Source: Candidatus Brockarchaeota archaeon | GTDB taxonomy: Archaea > Thermoproteota > EX4484-205 > JAAOZO01 | DNA: 64,000 nt | Reading direction: 5' to 3' | Assembly (NCBI GenBank): GCA_017601145.1 | Contig: JAFNIV010000004.1 | Span: 16,743-80,742, forward strand | Shown: positions 5,828-14,518 of the stretch, in pieces | How the letters are laid out: the number at the start of each line of letters is the position of its first letter | Numbering within the stretch: the stretch's first letter is position 1 | Program-made: the position numbers and the translations under genes | Notes under the pieces: generated by a model | Told to the model about the DNA's origin: nothing | Database searches by the model: none | Seen by the model: only the letters and a program-made list of their open reading frames with translations

Positions 5828-7024
5828 TTACAAACCTAATGATTCGTTTATTTCTTTTTGATAAACTTCAATATTACCATTTATGACATCTTCTACCTTT
5901 ACTGGCTCTCCAGTAACTGAAGACTCAAAGATAGCAAGAGGAATAGCTTCAGCTTTTAGTCCAAGCTCTCCATCAACTTCAGGTTTCTTATGCTCAATTA
6001 TAGACCGAGCAAAGTCATAAAGTTCTATTGCAATAGTACCGTCAAAATCAAACAAGTTTCTTGTACCAATCCCATTTGGAAATAGTTCATTCACTTTTTC
6101 TGCACCTAATTCTTTTTTCATCATCTGAGCTAGTTCATATAATGATAGTGTGTACTTTCCTAAGTTTTCTTCACCTAATTTTGTTAAACCATTTTCCCAG
6201 CTGATTGAGCCAGAAGTTCCATTGATTATTCTGTGATTAAAGTTTTCTCCTGGAGAAACATTAGACCAAATCCATGCACCAGTAACACCGTTCTTAAACT
6301 TCAATAAAGCAAAGCTTAAATCCTCAACTGTAGACTTAACTTTTTTATTCATTTCAGGCCAATCGTCATATCTAATTGGTTCAAGAGTCTTAGTGATAGC
6401 ATAAACTTCTTCAATTTCACCAAGTATATACAAGAATAGGTCAGCGAAGTGCACCCCGCCGTCAAATATCCAGCCACCACCAGCTTTCATCTTGTCGTTT
6501 CTCCACCCCCATGCAGATAAACTAAAGTTTGTTTGTAACCAGTACAGCATTCTTGGAGTTCCTATCATACCTTTTTCAACAGCCCACTTTATTACTCTAT
6601 CCTCTATACTTCTTCTGTAGTTTTCTGCAGTAGCAAGAATCTTACCATTCTTTCTTGAAGCTTCTATCATTTGCTTTGCGGCTTTAATTGTAATTCCTAG
6701 AGGTTTTTCAACTATTGTATGTTTTCCGGCATTCAGAGCGTCTACCGCAACAATATGGTGTGACCTATGATCGACGCATATGTCTACTGCTTCTAGTTCT
6801 TTTTCCTCTGAAAGCATCCTCTTGTAGTCTGTATAGACTTTTGGTTTAAAAGCCTGAAAAGAAGCTATTTCATTTGCTCTCCTTTTAGCATTCTCTTCTA
6901 CTATGTCAGCGATAGCAACAACATCAATAACATCAAGATTAGCTTCTTTAAGTATTCTTAAACCAGAAACGTGAGAACCTGCTATACCTCCAGCTCCAAT
7001 TATTGCCATCCTTACTTTGGACAT
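5828..7024 (-). CDS. Gfo/Idh/MocA-family NAD(P)-dependent oxidoreductase
   Basis: Rossmann start MAIIGAGGIAGSH and the VEKPL motif. It lies 44 nt downstream of the MetE-like gene on the same strand. Confidence 0.8.
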   Translation of the reverse strand: MSKVRMAIIGAGGIAGSHVSGLRILKEANLDVIDVVAIADIVEENAKRRANEIASFQAFKPKVYTDYKRMLSEEKELEAVDICVDHRSHHIVAVDALNAGKHTIVEKPLGITIKAAKQMIEASRKNGKILATAENYRRSIEDRVIKWAVEKGMIGTPRMLYWLQTNFSLSAWGWRNDKMKAGGGWIFDGGVHFADLFLYILGEIEEVYAITKTLEPIRYDDWPEMNKKVKSTVEDLSFALLKFKNGVTGAWIWSNVSPGENFNHRIINGTSGSISWENGLTKLGEENLGKYTLSLYELAQMMKKELGAEKVNELFPNGIGTRNLFDFDGTIAIELYDFARSIIEHKKPEVDGELGLKAEAIPLAIFESSVTGEPVKVEDVINGNIEVYQKEINESLGL

Positions 7025-7068: not shown

Positions 7069-7992
7069 TTATAACTTAGTTCTACTTGAAACTTCCTTTA
7101 AGTTCTTAAGAATAGTTGTAGCCAGCTCAATGCTTGTTTTTCTTAAACCACAATCTGGATGTACATAGGCGATCTTATTCGGCCCAACAGTAGAAAAAAC
7201 ATCCTTAATTATATTAATGGAGCTTTCAATAGAAGTTAGATCCTCTTGAGATAGAACATTAACTTTCATACACCCAACTCCGATTGTCTTTGAACTTATA
7301 CTTGACAGGTTCTTTGAGAGCACATCTATATTGCTAGAAGAACCAGCAAACTCTAAGCTAAGAACACTTGTATTTCTTATTTTACCTAAAGCTTTTAGCA
7401 CATTTGAATTTATTCTTCCACAAGCATGAATGCTTGTCATCTTTGGATCTAGACCTTCTGTTGCAATGTTCAAAGGTTCTTCTACTAAGTCTGGACTTAA
7501 GAATCCTGCACTAACTCCTGGCTCATCAATTTGAACTAATCCATCGTAGAATTGAATTTGTCTTGCAATTTTGTTTACAACGACTGCGACGTCATTATAT
7601 AACTCTTTATCTCTTAAACTTTTGTATGGGCCTAAGTTGTTTATTGCAGCAGAAAAACCAAGAGTTACTGGTCCAGTTATACCAACTTTTAACTTATTTT
7701 CGTATCCTTTTTCTTTAACATAACTTTTTGCTTCAAGGAAATCGACTACTTTAAAAGAAGTAGTAATTTCTTTTATAGGCTTAATTTTACCTGTTATGAA
7801 AATTTTTTCATTTGCCTTACTTAAACCATACATAGAATTTGACATATACGAGAGCATGTCGGCTCTTTGTTCTCCATCAGATATTATATCTATGCCTATA
7901 TTAACTTGTAAGTCAACTACTAATCTAATCGATTTTTTCAAGTTTTCATGAAGTCTTGGAAAGCTTCCAATTACGGTTGTAGTTAGAGACAT
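7069..7992 (-). CDS. metE: MetE-core (C-terminal-domain-only) cobalamin-independent methionine synthase family, Zn-dependent thiol methyltransferase
   Basis: Blocks VIGSFPR, SDGEQRADM, VQIDEPG, IHACG (H-x-C), LSLEFAG (E) and VHPDCGLRK (C). All four MetE-type zinc ligand positions appear to be present. Only 307 aa. Confidence 0.8.
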   Translation of the reverse strand: MSLTTTVIGSFPRLHENLKKSIRLVVDLQVNIGIDIISDGEQRADMLSYMSNSMYGLSKANEKIFITGKIKPIKEITTSFKVVDFLEAKSYVKEKGYENKLKVGITGPVTLGFSAAINNLGPYKSLRDKELYNDVAVVVNKIARQIQFYDGLVQIDEPGVSAGFLSPDLVEEPLNIATEGLDPKMTSIHACGRINSNVLKALGKIRNTSVLSLEFAGSSSNIDVLSKNLSSISSKTIGVGCMKVNVLSQEDLTSIESSINIIKDVFSTVGPNKIAYVHPDCGLRKTSIELATTILKNLKEVSSRTKL

Positions 7993-8296
7993 TGGTTTGT
8001 TCCTTTTTCGAATACTTTTAAATTTTTATTTTTAGAGTACCAGTCTAGGAATAAATGTTACATCAATCCTTAAGATAATAGTTCAGAAGCACTACAAAAA
8101 TTAAATACCTAAAAATCTTTATTTTTCTATATTACTCTAAATGCAGTTGGTTGTGTGACGATTACTAAGAGAAATATTAATCGCTTCTATTCTGAAAGTA
8201 CTTCTTGCAATGAAAAATAACGTAAAAATTAGTTTTATCATTAAAAGTGCTAAAGGCTTAAATATTCATCTCGTAAACACAAAGAGATAAATAAAG
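7993..8296. promoter_or_regulatory. divergent promoter region between the metE-like gene and mtaC
   Basis: 304-bp AT-rich spacer between divergent genes. A TATA-like TTAAATAT at 8258-8265 sits about 35 nt upstream of the mtaC ATG, which implies a very short leader. Confidence 0.3.
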
Positions 8297-8959
8297 ATGA
8301 GCAAGGAAAAGTATCTTGAAGCGATTAGAGATAGTATCGTAAACCTAGACTTTGATAAATCAAGAGAATACACTTTAAAGGCTTTAGAAGCAAATGTAAA
8401 ACCTCAAGAAATAATTTCAAAAAGCATAGCTGAAGGTATGGATATTGTGGGAAAGAAGTTTGAGTCAGGGGAATATTTTCTTTCTGAGCTAATTGTAGCT
8501 GGAGAAATAGGAAAAGAAATAACTAGTATTCTTGAACCTCATTTAAAGGGGAGCGAGATTAGTAGGGTTGGAAAGGTTGTTATTGGAACTGTAAGAGGGG
8601 ACTTACATGACATAGGAAAGAACATCGTTGCAATAATGCTTGAAGCTGCAGGATTTGAAGTTATCGACTTAGGAGCAGATGTTCCCCCTGAAAAATTTGT
8701 AGAAGCTGTGAAAAAAGAGAACCCAGATATAGTAGCAATGTCAGCCTTGTTAACGGTAACGATGGTTGAAATGAAGAACGTTATAGATGCGCTAAAGGAA
8801 GCTGGACTAAGAGAAAAAGTAAAAGTTATAATAGGAGGAGCACCAGTAACTGAAGAATTTGCAAGAAGCATAGGAGCAGACGGTTATGGAGCAGACGCAG
8901 TTCAAGGAGTAAGAATCTGCAAAGCATGGATGGAAGAAAAAAGTAAAACAAAAACCTGA
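8297..8959 (+). CDS. mtaC: methanol-type corrinoid protein (cobalamin-binding, MtaC-like)
   Basis: B12-binding signature DxHxxG (GDLHDIGKN), SxL (MSALLT) and GG (IIGGAP). It has an N-terminal helical cap domain and lies 11 nt upstream of the mtaB homolog. Confidence 0.9.
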   Translation: MSKEKYLEAIRDSIVNLDFDKSREYTLKALEANVKPQEIISKSIAEGMDIVGKKFESGEYFLSELIVAGEIGKEITSILEPHLKGSEISRVGKVVIGTVRGDLHDIGKNIVAIMLEAAGFEVIDLGADVPPEKFVEAVKKENPDIVAMSALLTVTMVEMKNVIDALKEAGLREKVKVIIGGAPVTEEFARSIGADGYGADAVQGVRICKAWMEEKSKTKT

Positions 8960-8970
8960 TGGAATGAGTT

Positions 8971-10314
8971 ATGGAGTTTAATAAAACAAGTTTAAGTTTG
9001 GAAGAAATAAAATTTGGATTTTCCAAGTTTCCACTTAAGTATGGCATTAACTTAGAAGTTGGGAATGGTAAAGTAATTCCTGAAATAAAGTACTTTCCAA
9101 GGGTAAAGGAAGACCTTAAGGAAGAGTATATAAACATAACAAAGGAAGTGCTAAATAGAGCAGTTGACCTTGGAATAAAAGATTTACAATTAGAAACAGA
9201 ACTAACTTACGTTGAAACAGGAAATCCAAAACTTGCAGGAGAGATAGTTAGGAGCCAAAGAGATATTATTGAAAAATATGCAAAAGAGTATAACATAAAC
9301 TTAGGACTTAGAGTAACAATAGCAGACATGAGAGATTTCAGAAAAGAAAAACATGATGAAGAAAGTTTTACAAAAATGCTAGAAACCTTTGAAGAAGTTT
9401 CTAAAAATGGAGCAGACGTTTTATCGATTGAATCTGAAGGAGGAAAAGAACTTTTCAACTACTCTATAATAAGACAAGACATTATAGGAATTGTAGTTTC
9501 TCTTGGGTTGTTATCAATACTTGACATGAAAAAATTGTGGAAAGAAATTGTAAAGATAGCAAGAAACAACAAAGTAATAGCAGGGGGAGATAGTGCTTGT
9601 GCTTTTGCAAACACTGCAATGAGACTAGCAGGCGGTATGAAGAACAACACTATACCTCATACTCTTGCAGCCGTAGTTAGAAGTATGTCCGCAAGTAGAA
9701 GCCTGATTGCTTACGAAGAAGGAGCCGTAGGTCCTGGAAAGGATTGCGCATATGAGAATGTAATAATCAAAGCCATAACAGGCTATCCAATGTCAATGGA
9801 AGGAAAAAGCTCAGCAGTAGCGCACTCGAGTCTTGTTGGCAATGTAGCTGCATCAGCCTGTGATCTTTGGTCAAATGAACAAGTTGAAAACATAAGACTT
9901 TTTGGGGGATATGGACCGGAAGTTTTTCTAGAGATCCTCTATTATGATACCAAGCTAATGAACGAAGCAATAAAAAATAAAAATCAAGATTGCTTAAAAA
10001 AAATTCTAGTAGAATCTGATAAGTACTTAGATCCACAAGCTTATGTTCTTTCTCCAGAAGTTGCTTTAGAAATTGGAAAAACAATAGTTAGTGAAAAAGA
10101 CACATTGTTGAGAACAATCTTTGCAGGAATTAAACTAGTGGAACTAATGACGAAAGAAGAAAGACTTAATCTTAACAAGAATGAGACAAGGTTCTTAAAG
10201 GTTATGAAAACTACGTTAGAAGAGATAAGCAAAGAACCTTATAAAAAAGTAGAACAAGCATTACCAACTTATGAGCAAAAAATAAGTGAGTATAGGCTGA
10301 AGGATTACTTCTGA
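8971..10314 (+). CDS. mtaB: methanol:corrinoid methyltransferase MtaB
   Basis: Collinear with methanogen MtaB as I remember it: FGFSKFPLKYG, LSIESEGGKELF, GGDSACAFANTAM, AYEEGAVGPGKDCAYENVIIKAITGYPMSMEGKSSAVAHS, DPQAYVLSPE. The Glu/Cys/Cys blocks that carry the Zn ligands in characterised MtaB are retained. Confidence 0.9.
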   Translation: MEFNKTSLSLEEIKFGFSKFPLKYGINLEVGNGKVIPEIKYFPRVKEDLKEEYINITKEVLNRAVDLGIKDLQLETELTYVETGNPKLAGEIVRSQRDIIEKYAKEYNINLGLRVTIADMRDFRKEKHDEESFTKMLETFEEVSKNGADVLSIESEGGKELFNYSIIRQDIIGIVVSLGLLSILDMKKLWKEIVKIARNNKVIAGGDSACAFANTAMRLAGGMKNNTIPHTLAAVVRSMSASRSLIAYEEGAVGPGKDCAYENVIIKAITGYPMSMEGKSSAVAHSSLVGNVAASACDLWSNEQVENIRLFGGYGPEVFLEILYYDTKLMNEAIKNKNQDCLKKILVESDKYLDPQAYVLSPEVALEIGKTIVSEKDTLLRTIFAGIKLVELMTKEERLNLNKNETRFLKVMKTTLEEISKEPYKKVEQALPTYEQKISEYRLKDYF

Positions 10315-11144
10315 TTTTGTTTTTCTTTTTCTAGTTCGGCATCAGCTTCCGCAAAGTCTCTTTTAACAAAAGGATTATCGCTTGCTATGGTCCTAGTTTT
10401 TCTTATATCGTTAGAATAGAAATCTCTCTGTTCTAGCGCCTTTAAAAACCTATTACTGAAATCCTCAATGTAGGAACCATAAATATGGTAAGAATCTGAA
10501 ATGTCTACATATTGTCCAACTACGACTTCTTTATGGATTTTCTTAGAAATCATTAAAGCAATTTCTTTCTGTAGCTCTGTAAGAGCAAACATGTTCATGA
10601 AAGCAGCCTTATAAGCATCTCTAGACCTCCAATGAGCATTCATATTCAACATTAATGTACCATTTTCTTCTGTACAACGAAGCCATATCCTTTGTAAACA
10701 TGGAGGGTCATCTGTTTTTGGATCTAACTTAGGATCCCATGTTATTGCTTGTGCTCTTCTAGTATAAGGAACTTTAGAAAGCTTATCTACAACATAATCT
10801 ACTTGATTTATGAATCCATCGCATGAAGGGTATTTAAACAGTCTTTGATGATAAGTATAGGTCCACTTACCACTTTTTGGATCTATCCAATGATCATGAA
10901 CTCCCTCTACAACTTCTCTTCTGTATTTCCATAAATCCTTAAAACTTGCTGGAATTGATAGGTGTATCCTTGGTTCTGAAAGGGGTTTAAAAACAACCAT
11001 TACCATTGTTGCATCTACACTTGGAGGGTCGTTAGGCTTATCGTATTCTGTTCTTATTCTAATGCCACTTTTCCAAAGCTCAACTAAAGATTTTTCCCAA
11101 GCTTCTGCTATGTTATTACCGCTAACTTTTATGACGGGAATCAT
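10305..11144 (-). CDS. thyA: thymidylate synthase (ThyA) family protein
   Basis: YTRRAQAITWDP...DPPCLQ (catalytic Cys block), HWRSRDAYKAAFMNMF and DSYHIYG parallel the ThyA RR / PPCH / RS.D / D.H.Y blocks. Its 3' end overlaps the mtaB 3' end by 10 nt (convergent). Confidence 0.7.
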   Translation of the reverse strand: MIPVIKVSGNNIAEAWEKSLVELWKSGIRIRTEYDKPNDPPSVDATMVMVVFKPLSEPRIHLSIPASFKDLWKYRREVVEGVHDHWIDPKSGKWTYTYHQRLFKYPSCDGFINQVDYVVDKLSKVPYTRRAQAITWDPKLDPKTDDPPCLQRIWLRCTEENGTLMLNMNAHWRSRDAYKAAFMNMFALTELQKEIALMISKKIHKEVVVGQYVDISDSYHIYGSYIEDFSNRFLKALEQRDFYSNDIRKTRTIASDNPFVKRDFAEADAELEKEKQNQK

Positions 11145-11209: not shown

Positions 11210-13108
11210 TTAAGAGTCATAATTTTTTTCTCCTTCTCTTAAAGATGAAATTGACTTAAGAGTTCTTTGAAATAGGGCTTCATCCTTATGAGGAATAAAC
11301 GTTGCGTTTATAAACTCTTGTCTAAACGAAGGTACTAAGTTTAGTTCGACTACCTTAATTTTCTTAGCAACTTCTATTGATTCTCTCCAAAGTTCTTTAG
11401 AAAGAAGTAAAGAACTAGCACCCATCCCAGAACCATTACCAATTTGTACAATTTTTTCTCTTTGAACTTCAGGTAAAAGCCCAATTATCATGGCATAAAA
11501 GGGGTCTATGTAGTTTCCAAATGCACCTGCAATAAACAGCTTCTTAACATCTTCTACTTTTGTTTTGCTTATTTTAGACAAAGTTATGAAAGCTGAAAGT
11601 ACAGCAGCCTTTGCAAGTTGTACTTTTCTAATATCTTCTTGAGTTATAACTATTTCTTTACCTGTTCCAGAGTTTTTTTCATCAACTAAGACAAATTGAA
11701 GTTCATTGTTTTCTTTTTTTACTCTGCTAGAGTTTTCTAGTAGCTTTCCAGATTTGTTTACTATGCCTCTAATTCGTAACCAAGCTAAAGCTTCAACAAT
11801 ACCAGAACCGCATATTCCAACTGGTTTTCTATTTCCTATGGTTTTAAAAAATACTTCGTTACCATCCTCACTTATAGTAACTGATTCTATAGCACCTTCC
11901 ATAGCACGCATACCGTGTCTTATGCTGTATCCTTCAAGAGCGGGACCAGCGGCACATGATGCTGCAAAGATTTCATTTAAGTTCTTGATTACAACTTCGC
12001 CATTTGTTCCAAGGTCAATTAAAGCAACTGGATCTTCATACTTAAAAAGCTCAGAAACTAAAATATCTGCAACAACATCACCGCCAATATAAGCACTCAC
12101 GCAAGGTAATGTTCTAACGTATCCTGAAGGATTTATTTCTACCTTTAAGTCTCTTGCCTTAACTTTAACTTGTGAAGTAAAAGGAGGAATATAAGGAGAT
12201 CTAGAAGAATAGAAGCTATTGTTTCCTAAGAGAAATGCTGTCATAACAGTATTCCCAGAACAAACGACATCATAGATTTTAGACGTATCAACATTTGTTT
12301 CTTTTGCTAGCTCTTTTATAATTTTGTTAATTGTAGAAATTATTGCCCCTTGAATATTCTTCAAGTTTTCGTAGCTTCGACTTGCGTATTCAATTCTACT
12401 TATTACGTCTTCACCAAATTTTATTTGTTCGTTGAAGGAAGATTTAATAGATAGCAATTCTCCAGTCAATAGGTCATATAAGTATCCAACAACGGTTGTT
12501 GTTCCAATATCAAAAGAAACACCATACAAACTAAAATTGTCCGAGTTAGGGACAACATCTAGTAATTCATCATCAAACAATATAGCACTAACATTAAAAT
12601 TGGAGTTCCAAATTACTTTTGAAATTTTTTCCAAGATAAGTGAGTCAAAGGTATTAGTATTTAGCTCAGCTAAAACCCTTTCAAGATCAGCTTTCTGATC
12701 TTCTAAACTTGGCTTAGACAATAATATAGATTTTCTTGTTGTTGATGGGCTTAAGTTGATTTGAACCTTCTTTCCAAGTGTTAGTATTTTTATGTTTTTC
12801 GTTTCAATGGTTTCACTTAGTTCGATAACAGCATCAGAAAGTAAGTTAGCCTGACATGCTAATCTAATGTCTAACCCAAGAGCTTTTTGCCATCTTTTTT
12901 CTTGTAAAGTTGGTTCAGAAAGAGACCCGCTGACTATTCTTATAGCACACTTTCCACATATACCTTTACCACCACAAACGCTCGCAACAGAGATGCCACT
13001 TCTTAGAAGAGCTTCAAGAATTGTTTCTTCAGGCTTTACAATGACTGAAGTGCCATTTGGTAAAATTCTAAGAGCATAGAGTTTGTATGAATTTTTGTCT
13101 ATGTCCAT
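11210..13108 (-). CDS. corrinoid reductive activase, RACo/COG3894 type (N-terminal 2Fe-2S ferredoxin + ASKHA ATPase)
   Basis: N-terminal plant-type ferredoxin Cys pattern CGGKGICGKC...ACQ. ASKHA phosphate motifs FDIGTTTVVG and IDLGTNGEV. 632 aa. Adjacent to mtaCB. Confidence 0.85.
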   Translation of the reverse strand: MDIDKNSYKLYALRILPNGTSVIVKPEETILEALLRSGISVASVCGGKGICGKCAIRIVSGSLSEPTLQEKRWQKALGLDIRLACQANLLSDAVIELSETIETKNIKILTLGKKVQINLSPSTTRKSILLSKPSLEDQKADLERVLAELNTNTFDSLILEKISKVIWNSNFNVSAILFDDELLDVVPNSDNFSLYGVSFDIGTTTVVGYLYDLLTGELLSIKSSFNEQIKFGEDVISRIEYASRSYENLKNIQGAIISTINKIIKELAKETNVDTSKIYDVVCSGNTVMTAFLLGNNSFYSSRSPYIPPFTSQVKVKARDLKVEINPSGYVRTLPCVSAYIGGDVVADILVSELFKYEDPVALIDLGTNGEVVIKNLNEIFAASCAAGPALEGYSIRHGMRAMEGAIESVTISEDGNEVFFKTIGNRKPVGICGSGIVEALAWLRIRGIVNKSGKLLENSSRVKKENNELQFVLVDEKNSGTGKEIVITQEDIRKVQLAKAAVLSAFITLSKISKTKVEDVKKLFIAGAFGNYIDPFYAMIIGLLPEVQREKIVQIGNGSGMGASSLLLSKELWRESIEVAKKIKVVELNLVPSFRQEFINATFIPHKDEALFQRTLKSISSLREGEKNYDS

Positions 13109-13438: not shown

Positions 13439-14518
13439 ATGCTGAACTCAAGAGAAAGGTTTCTAACAGCCTTAGCTAGAAAACAACCAGATAGAGTTCC
13501 AATTTGGGAGTTAATAATAAATGAACCAGTAATAAGCAGTTTACTTCCTGGAAAAAGTTATGCTGATTTTGTAGAATGGATAGATTTAGATGGAATTACC
13601 ACTGGAGAAGACCAAATTTTTAGAAAGGAAGGAGAATACATAGTAGATGAATGGGGAATAAAGTGGAAGGTCAGTACTCCTGGAATTAACTACCCAGCAG
13701 GAGGCCCAATAAGAGAGCCTAAAGACTTAGAAAGCTATAAGCCTCCAGATCCAGATGCAGAACATAGACTAAGAACTCTAGAAGCCTATGTTGATAGGTT
13801 TAAAGGAAGAAAAGCAATAGTTTTTCTAGGGCATGAAACATTTGAATTTTCTCATTACCTGTTAGGTGGCATGTCAAACCTTTTCTATTATTACTATAAG
13901 GATCCTAAATTTGTTCATAGGTTGAGTGAGATTATTTCAGAGTACAAATGCAGAGTGATGCAAAGAGCTGTAAAGTTAGGAGCAGACGTTCTTCTAACTG
14001 GAGATGACTATGCAAACAGAAAGGCTCCTTTGATGTCTCCAAAGCAATTTAAGGAATTTATACTTCCCTATTTAAGAAAAGCTGTAGAAACATCAAAGAA
14101 ACTTGGAGTTCCTTTCATAAAGCATACAGATGGTAACCTTTGGCCAATAATAGATATGATTGTAGAAGCCGGAATTGATGCTCTAGACCCAATAGAACCA
14201 ATTGCAAGAATGGACATAGGAGAAGTAAAGAAAAAGTATGGAGATAAGATAGCTGTAGTTGGAAATGTGGATTGTTCCTATGTTTTAACATTAGGAAATG
14301 AAAAAGAAGTTGAAGATGCAGTAAAAGAAACGATTGCAAAAGCTTCTCCAGGCGGTGGGCATATAATAGCTTCTAGTAACAGCATACATCCTGCTGTTAA
14401 ACCTTCAAACTATTTACTTATGACAAAGTTAGTAAAAGAATATGGAGTTTATCCAATCGATGAAAAATTAGTTGAAGAATATAGGGAAAGAAAATACATA
14501 GCGAAGTACCTAGATTAG
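13439..14518 (+). CDS. uroporphyrinogen-decarboxylase (UroD/MtaA/MtbA) family protein lacking the MT2 zinc Cys ligands
   Basis: UroD-fold length and blocks (PDRVPIWE, LTGDDYA, IKHTDGN, DALDPIEP, IASSNSIHP). The positions that are H-x-C and a late C in CoM methyltransferases read H-T-D and S-S-N-S here. Confidence 0.7.
   Translation: MLNSRERFLTALARKQPDRVPIWELIINEPVISSLLPGKSYADFVEWIDLDGITTGEDQIFRKEGEYIVDEWGIKWKVSTPGINYPAGGPIREPKDLESYKPPDPDAEHRLRTLEAYVDRFKGRKAIVFLGHETFEFSHYLLGGMSNLFYYYYKDPKFVHRLSEIISEYKCRVMQRAVKLGADVLLTGDDYANRKAPLMSPKQFKEFILPYLRKAVETSKKLGVPFIKHTDGNLWPIIDMIVEAGIDALDPIEPIARMDIGEVKKKYGDKIAVVGNVDCSYVLTLGNEKEVEDAVKETIAKASPGGGHIIASSNSIHPAVKPSNYLLMTKLVKEYGVYPIDEKLVEEYRERKYIAKYLD

Follow-up and report, generated by a model that had tools for sequence, protein, structure and literature searches.

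The subject of this report is a 64,000-nucleotide stretch of DNA (the window; contig JAFNIV010000004.1, positions 16,743 to 80,742) from an uncultured, methane-free hot-spring archaeon of the Brockarchaeota type, and in particular an island of genes in which a short methionine synthase, here called core-MetE (7069-7992, minus strand), lies back to back with the genes for a corrinoid protein, MtaC, and a methanol:corrinoid methyltransferase, MtaB. Our main conclusion, which we hold at a probability of roughly 0.65, is that core-MetE is the second-step methyltransferase (MT2, i.e., a methyl-corrinoid-protein:homocysteine methyltransferase) of a methanol:homocysteine system that comprises MtaB, MtaC, core-MetE and the reductive activase RACo, and that this system is anabolic rather than a catabolic replacement for MtaA. 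The original prediction, made from the letters of the window, had suggested that core-MetE might take its methyl group directly from methyl-MtaC and thus drive methionine synthesis with methanol; the comparative and neighborhood evidence described below makes this part of it probable.

The gene encoding core-MetE is real and conserved: its open reading frame specifies 307 amino acids, and metagenome-assembled genomes (MAGs) of the same genus encode relatives that are 79-83% identical. The only Pfam match of the protein is Meth_synt_2 (PF01717; 6.4e-24, profile positions 34-322 of 324), and Pfam finds no Meth_synt_1 part in it. As claimed at the outset, then, the protein is the C-terminal barrel of MetE alone with an intact zinc site, and each of the quoted motifs is present in the translation (VIGSFPR, SDGEQRADM, VQIDEP, SIHACG, LSLEFAG and HPDCGL). 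When aligned with Thermotoga maritima MetE (1XDJ) and 190 relatives, the homocysteine ligands (S10, E41 and D156) and the zinc ligands (H189, C191, E214 and C281) are all canonical, so that core-MetE has both features of the core methionine synthases that lack a folate domain, namely a lone C-terminal barrel and the full set of zinc and homocysteine ligands. An AlphaFold2 model built on 23 relatives (pLDDT 95.9) has as its top structural match the C-terminal barrel of T. maritima MetE with zinc and homocysteine bound (3bq5, TMq 0.84), while MtaA (4ay7, TMq 0.72) is a more remote relative. A complex prediction for core-MetE and the Rossmann domain of MtaC (residues 85-220), run with our own alignments and without controls, scored 0.00 and speaks neither for nor against binding.

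Two observations concern the protein and its gene more broadly. Across the alignment of 191 homologues, the glutamate zinc ligand at position 214 (in S-L-E-F) is retained in the Brockarchaeota, MesA and split-MetE groups, and is replaced by Ala, Gly or Ser in members from Bathyarchaeia, Thermoplasmata, Methanomethylicota and Asgard archaea, sometimes with a His one residue before; homologues without this Glu may bind zinc differently. In addition, a gene for an oxidoreductase of the Gfo/Idh/MocA type (5828-7024), which has about 20 paralogues in the genome, lies 44 bp downstream of core-MetE in the same orientation, and the two may share a transcript.

Regarding the family to which core-MetE belongs, the best curated model is PRK00957, the MesA type, with 184-185 bits against a cut-off of 258, a threshold passed in just one of 14 control genomes; the catalytic family of split MetE, PRK04326 (NF003317), gives 98-103 bits against a cut-off of 406. 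Core-MetE does not qualify as a MesA, as it scores below 258 bits, its identity to MesA representatives falls short of the roughly 40% to the characterized enzyme that would also have sufficed, and neither MCR_alpha nor MtrH was found in its host. In a tree of 191 sequences it belongs to a clade of 15 Brockarchaeota sequences (support 100), nested in an all-archaeal clade of 117 (support 98) that takes in Bathyarchaeia, Borrarchaeota, Thermoplasmata, Methanomethylicota and the Asgard Jord-, Frey-, Odin- and Baldrarchaeia. Outside this clade are the MesA representatives from Methanobrevibacter and Methanopyrus, to which core-MetE is 27-31% identical, and the catalytic subunit of split MetE from Sulfolobales, to which it is 25% identical. 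Price et al. set apart their four families at less than 30% identity (PMC7857596), and by this yardstick the sequences place core-MetE in a distinct, MesA-like clade; two features, given below, distinguish it from MesB as published. Relatives deposited as Candidatus Brockarchaeota include those at loci L021 and L068 (58-60% identity). Within the order, the core MetE of this genus is closer to copies from a different family (genus g6; 56-64% identity) than to those of its own family (37-38%; G003:C11:10358-11254 and G004:C3:57298-58194), a pattern that hints at horizontal movement of the island with metE, mtaCB, thyA and RACo.

One line of evidence for the conclusion is the recurrent linkage of this clade to corrinoid genes. 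We searched 80 genomic loci that encode core-MetE relatives with the MtaC, MtaB, RACo and UroD proteins of the window, and later with MtrH and MTTB proteins drawn from two of those loci. In 24 of the 80 loci, the MetE homologue has an MtaC-type gene no more than 3 kb away, a count that becomes 16/54 when only loci flanked by 3 kb or more on either side are considered; the genomes sampled carry one to seven MtaC-type genes in 1.5-2 Mb, for which about 0.4-3% of loci would be expected by chance. On the tree, the loci that show linkage are spread over at least six separate groups, and their layouts differ. In all three genomes of the genus (the window itself, L014 and L015), mtaC and mtaB are transcribed away from a divergent metE, with thyA and RACo nearby. 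In a second Brockarchaeota lineage (L025 and L068, i.e., genomes G020 and G015), thyA, metE, mtaC and mtaB follow each other on one strand and RACo converges on them. One bathyarchaeial locus (L028) has a corrinoid gene divergent from metE and convergent with an MTTB-RACo pair, and a second (L031) has metE convergent with a corrinoid gene that lies downstream of a UroD gene; in Borrarchaeota (L027), a corrinoid gene, a UroD gene and metE succeed one another on one strand. At 12 Methanomethylicota loci metE directly follows the corrinoid gene, either 3-33 bp away or with overlapping stop and start codons, and an MtrH-family gene comes next in the 11 loci that are long enough. Finally, in five loci from Frey- and Jordarchaeia, metE is convergent with an MTTB gene that lies downstream of a corrinoid gene.

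What remains constant across these lineages is the pair of corrinoid protein and core MetE, and what varies is the enzyme that would load the corrinoid (MtaB, MtrH, or a member of the MttB or UroD families). A constant pair with a lineage-dependent loader is the signature of an MT2, and it suggests that the core-MetE family takes its methyl groups from corrinoid carriers. The original prediction had allowed that the adjacency was probably fortuitous for a sole methionine synthase whose relatives lack any linkage to corrinoid genes; the genome indeed yielded no methionine synthase besides core-MetE, but the relatives do show the linkage, as it recurs throughout the genus (3/3), in the second Brockarchaeota lineage and in five further lineages. 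A limited search of the literature found no paper that links core-MetE with MtaC, MtaB, MtrH or MttB clusters.

Two groups of loci deserve a separate mention. The corrinoid-protein, core-MetE and MtrH genes of Methanomethylicota form an operon with overlapping stop and start codons (L104:6363-8754 and 10 further loci), which, judged from its gene content, would be in effect a three-piece cobalamin-dependent methionine synthase; the same limited literature search found no description of this operon. At eight Thermoplasmata loci (L037, L041, L048, L055, L056, L060, L064 and L066), no corrinoid gene stands beside the MetE homologue, and a conserved MTTB-family gene lies some 9 kb downstream, close to where the fetched flanks end.

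A second line of evidence comes from the presence and loss of genes, which we compared in 26 genomes of the order. Two of them (G015 and G020) have the metE-mtaC-mtaB operon plus a split MetE beside an MTHFR-like gene, so that the copy linked to mtaCB is an extra synthase tied to methanol. Seven others (G008, G011, G012, G014, G016, G021 and G024) have a stand-alone core-MetE, an intact mtaC, an MtrH-family gene and no split MetE, a set that corresponds to the trio forming an operon in Methanomethylicota. In two of these seven, mtaB has been lost: in G016 what is left of it is frameshifted and broken into four pieces (residues 165-447), and in G024 it is deleted; in both, mtaC and RACo are intact and core-MetE is the sole methionine synthase. 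Conversely, G019 has neither mtaC nor mtaB, has a split MetE, and its core-MetE is reduced to a two-frame remnant (residues 157-300), while G013 and G022 have no carrier and no core-MetE and rely on split MetE. Taken together, these cases indicate that retention of core-MetE follows MtaC and not MtaB; given the kinship of the genomes, they are case observations and not statistics.

The content of the host genome points in the same direction. The MAG comprises 1.62 Mb in 55 contigs, with the window on an 87-kb contig, and is 86.5% complete, a figure that sets the scope of every absence reported here for the assembled genome. Core-MetE is its only Meth_synt_2 match; the check for a second metE or metH, which had been advised with the original prediction, found no MetH homocysteine domain and no Meth_synt_1 (PF08267). 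MtaC is the only corrinoid methyl carrier (tblastn and PF02310), the second PF02310 match being a B12-binding radical-SAM enzyme. As the sole carrier beside the sole methionine synthase, MtaC would be the methyl hub of the cell. Also not found were CoFeSP/CdhD (PF03599), MTHFR, a Pterin_bind methyltransferase, MtrH, MCR (MCR_alpha) or any other consumer of methyl-thiols. With MtrH and MTHFR both undetected, MtaB and the UroD-family paralogues are the candidate loaders of MtaC. The presence of S-adenosylhomocysteine (SAH) hydrolase means that homocysteine is produced; for its de novo synthesis, the search covered HcyBio, which was not found.

From these elements the following mechanism can be proposed. 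MtaB would transfer the methyl group of methanol to Co(I)-MtaC, a step that the UroD-family paralogues may also perform; core-MetE would then dock, by the mouth of its barrel, on methyl-Co(III)-MtaC, activate homocysteine as a zinc thiolate by means of H189, C191, E214 and C281, and accept the methyl group to give methionine. RACo would re-reduce MtaC whenever it lapses into inactive Co(II). The role of the system would be anabolic, supplying methionine and the methyl group of S-adenosylmethionine (SAM), and closing the cycle from SAH back to homocysteine. The analysis establishes gene content, residues, fold, neighborhoods and the patterns of gene presence across genomes; both the protein-to-protein transfer from MtaC to core-MetE and the use of methanol as the methyl source are inferred. 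The transfer is consistent with what is known of the characterized core synthases, MesA and MesB, which use methylcobalamin in vitro and not methyl-folate (PMC7005905, PMC7857596). The Km of MesB for methylcobalamin, about 240 uM, was judged unphysiological (PMC7005905), and as it is too high for the free cofactor, a corrinoid protein was proposed as the physiological donor (PMC7005905, PMC7857596).

Several points weigh against this interpretation. Core-MetE stands alone among sugar-metabolism genes in 9 of the 15 Brockarchaeota loci; in the genus itself its arrangement with mtaC is divergent, with no operon, and the spacer between the two genes (7993-8296) contains about 220 extra bp that are specific to this genome and lie between its conserved blocks. 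The related genomes are not independent observations, and the count of separate origins is small. At 86.5% completeness, a second carrier, an MtrH or another synthase could be in the missing part. Moreover, the same-genus relatives carry an MtrH-family gene, so that the genus could usually draw its methyl groups from methyl-pterin and not from methanol.

This last gene merits some detail. A member of the MtrH/MtgA family is present in both same-genus genomes (L106:2930-3829 in G002, and G001:C244:16827-17675) and in eight genomes of the neighboring genus (NF002142, 312 bits). In the genome studied here (G000), the 6-kb segment that bears it is missing from between genes for a DegT aminotransferase and a PadR regulator (C22:51123-51455), and as this syntenic site is inside an intact 117-kb contig, the absence at that site is real and an assembly gap can be ruled out. 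The protein could be the one that carries out the "undescribed" methyl-corrinoid:pterin step in Brockarchaeota, discussed below.

Among the other explanations, the one that survives best takes core-MetE as an ordinary core methionine synthase with a housekeeping role, placed beside mtaCB by coincidence and supplied with methyl groups by free methyl-cobamide or an unrecognized donor. Most Brockarchaeota orthologues (L016-L024) and all Thermoplasmata homologues do stand alone in unrelated neighborhoods, and a divergent orientation is no proof of co-regulation. However, with a single corrinoid gene in 1.62 Mb, immediate adjacency would arise by chance with a probability of about 0.1-0.4%; at least six lineages and arrangements show the linkage; and core-MetE is retained alongside mtaC, whereas without mtaC it decays. 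As for a free cofactor as donor, the MesB Km given above argues against it. We therefore consider this explanation improbable, albeit worth keeping in mind.

A second alternative, which goes back in part to the original prediction, is that core-MetE replaces MtaA as the MT2 of a catabolic methanol pathway and methylates a thiol other than homocysteine, such as a carrier resembling coenzyme M (CoM). In its favor, the island contains no MtaA with an H-x-C site, the C-terminal barrel of MetE and MtaA have a common fold, and Brockarchaeota are reported to be without a recognized MT2 (PMC8065059). The MtaA-like protein of the island does lack the zinc thiolate site, as had been noted, with H-T-D in place of H-x-C. 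The genome, however, encodes at least ten UroD/MtaA-family paralogues (on contigs C14, C18, C20, C24, C26, C28, C37 and C52, and at 13439-14518 of the window), nine of them with H-x-D at this position and one (contig C37, L109:982-2232) with H-S-C, and thus an H-x-C site is present elsewhere. No MCR or other consumer of a methyl-thiol was found in the genome, and a methionine synthase is an anabolic sink. The three side chains that bind homocysteine are intact, which speaks against another thiol as acceptor, and together with a product that is an amino acid they place the reaction in an anabolic branch. Furthermore, core-MetE is the sole candidate methionine synthase, so that the cell needs it to make methionine. 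A catabolic role for core-MetE is accordingly very unlikely.

Finally, core-MetE could be the catalytic half of a split MetE that uses methyl-pterin with a separate Meth_synt_1 protein, an arrangement common in archaea (PMC7857596) and present in several relatives, and core-MetE keeps Glu at the E484 position, like MetE; we reject this reading, which retains next to no likelihood, because Meth_synt_1 (PF08267) was not found in this genome or in the other two of the genus (G000, G001 and G002) and because the identity to the Sulfolobales subunit (25%) and the NF003317 score (98-103 bits versus 406) are low, while in the relatives that have split MetE the partner of Meth_synt_1 is a different paralogue (29% identity) and no MTHFR was found here.

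Returning to the system of MtaB, MtaC, core-MetE and RACo, the remaining genes of the island are described here in the order in which they lie. The divergent spacer that separates core-MetE from mtaC measures exactly 304 bp (7993-8296), as first reported. Reading of the sequence and alignment show two AT-rich, TATA-like blocks, one near each gene; in the same-genus loci, where the spacer measures 84-86 bp (L014:9917-10000 and L015:1968-2053), these two end blocks are conserved, and they may serve as promoters.

The first gene on the other side (8297-8959, plus strand) encodes MtaC, the proposed methyl donor, an MtaC-type corrinoid methyl-carrier protein recognized by its Pfam B12-binding_2 and B12-binding domains and by its DxHxxG, SxL and GG motifs. 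After a gap of 11 nt comes the gene for MtaB, the methanol:corrinoid methyltransferase (MT1; 8971-10314, plus strand; Pfam MtaB, 526 bits). Its match to Methanosarcina barkeri MtaB (2I2X) scores 383 bits, and it conserves the residues aligned to E164, C220 and C269, which we take to be the zinc ligands of the latter. A ThyA-like gene (10305-11144, minus strand; Pfam Thymidylat_synt, TIGR03283 at 127 bits, below the cut-off) follows. It co-travels with core-MetE in Brockarchaeota, adjoining it in the window and in L014, L025, L026, L068, L102 and L103; it thus accompanies core-MetE in two lineages of this group, and in L026 it remains beside metE in the absence of mtaCB.

The next gene (11210-13108, minus strand) encodes the reductive activase of the RACo type, with 2Fe-2S and ASKHA domains (Pfam Fer2, RACo_linker, Raco_middle and RACo_C_ter); it stays with mtaC in relatives, even where mtaB has been lost. 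The last gene (13439-14518, plus strand) encodes the UroD/MtaA-family protein that has H-T-D in its motif and scores 76 bits, below the cut-off, with NCBIfam mtaA_cmuA. It may be an alternative loader of MtaC, and its membership in the system is uncertain; in L027 and L031 a UroD-family gene is the neighbor of the corrinoid gene, and in L018 one adjoins the MetE homologue. By their domains and motifs, MtaB, MtaC and RACo look functional, and the island has the parts of a three-component methyltransferase system: an MT1 and a DxHxxG corrinoid protein encoded together, a RACo activase, and a putative zinc-thiolate MT2 encoded with the corrinoid protein and kept across lineages.

These results bear on two questions in the literature. 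The first concerns Brockarchaeota, in which MtaA was described as lacking and "another undescribed protein" was invoked to act after the corrinoid protein, with no mention of methionine (PMC8065059). Core-MetE would be one defined acceptor for the methyl-corrinoid of these archaea, and the MtrH/MtgA-family protein of the relatives a second. The other question, namely which molecule donates the methyl group to archaeal core methionine synthases in the cell, has stood since 1999, when the first such enzyme was characterized, and the donors proposed in print, MtrA or CoFeSP, were named on indirect grounds. The gene clusters suggest concrete partners for one large archaeal clade, i.e., MtaC-type carriers together with loaders of the MtaB, MtrH or MttB families, and the question can now be tested with four recombinant proteins. 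If the proposal is true, matches to mtaB in methane-free archaeal MAGs will have to be reinterpreted in surveys of the carbon cycle.

A bolder extension, which we regard as speculative and give distinctly less than even credence, is that this archaeon, and perhaps much of Brockarchaeota, has no internal route to transferable methyl groups and obligately draws those of methionine and SAM from environmental methanol or methylated compounds, via MtaB (or UroD-type loaders), MtaC and core-MetE. In that case, the puzzling mtaBC genes of methane-free archaea would serve anabolic methyl harvesting and not energy metabolism, and the clade would make up a fifth core methionine synthase family, acting as a common MT2 with swappable MT1 enzymes (MtaB, MtrH, or members of the MttB and UroD families).

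It is instructive to compare the proposed system with those already known. The first is MesA, known from Methanothermobacter and other methanogens as a methylcobalamin:homocysteine methyltransferase (Schroder and Thauer 1999, cited in PMC7005905; the family is defined in PMC7857596). Both are MetE C-terminal barrels of about 300 residues without a folate domain and with the same zinc ligands and homocysteine Ser/Asp residues; MesA is the best-scoring curated family, and its own donor in vitro is a methyl-corrinoid. Core-MetE differs in its score (184 bits versus 258), its 27-31% identity and its separate clade, as well as in having Glu and not Gln at the E484 position; in addition, neither an Mtr complex nor MCR was found in its host, and consequently the donor predicted for MesA, MtrA, is unavailable. 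The likeness to MesB, the core-MetE of Dehalococcoides mccartyi that has been linked to CoFeSP (PMC7005905, PMC7857596), is that of a core synthase for which a corrinoid protein, backed by operon evidence, is the proposed physiological donor. In contrast, no CoFeSP (PF03599) or Wood-Ljungdahl genes were found in this genome, and, by the published description of MesB, core-MetE is set apart by a clean GE-x-R-x-DM block that aligns with MetE and by a third zinc ligand that is Glu and not Asp.

With the MtaABC system of Methanosarcina, the island shares homologues of MtaB and MtaC in which the motifs for metal and B12 are conserved, a (beta/alpha)8 barrel with a zinc thiolate as the proposed MT2, and an ATP-dependent activase; it differs in that the proposed acceptor is homocysteine and not CoM, the MT2 is a MetE barrel and not MtaA, the activase is of the RACo type, and no methanogenesis genes were found. 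The logic of the proposed reactions is that of MetH, in which a methyl donor methylates Co(I), methyl-Co(III) passes the methyl group to zinc-activated homocysteine, and the cofactor is reductively reactivated. Here, however, each module is a protein of its own, the one for homocysteine is folded like MetE and not like BHMT/MetH, and the loading module is MtaB, presumably with methanol, or, in the Methanomethylicota relatives, a pterin methyltransferase of the MtrH family.

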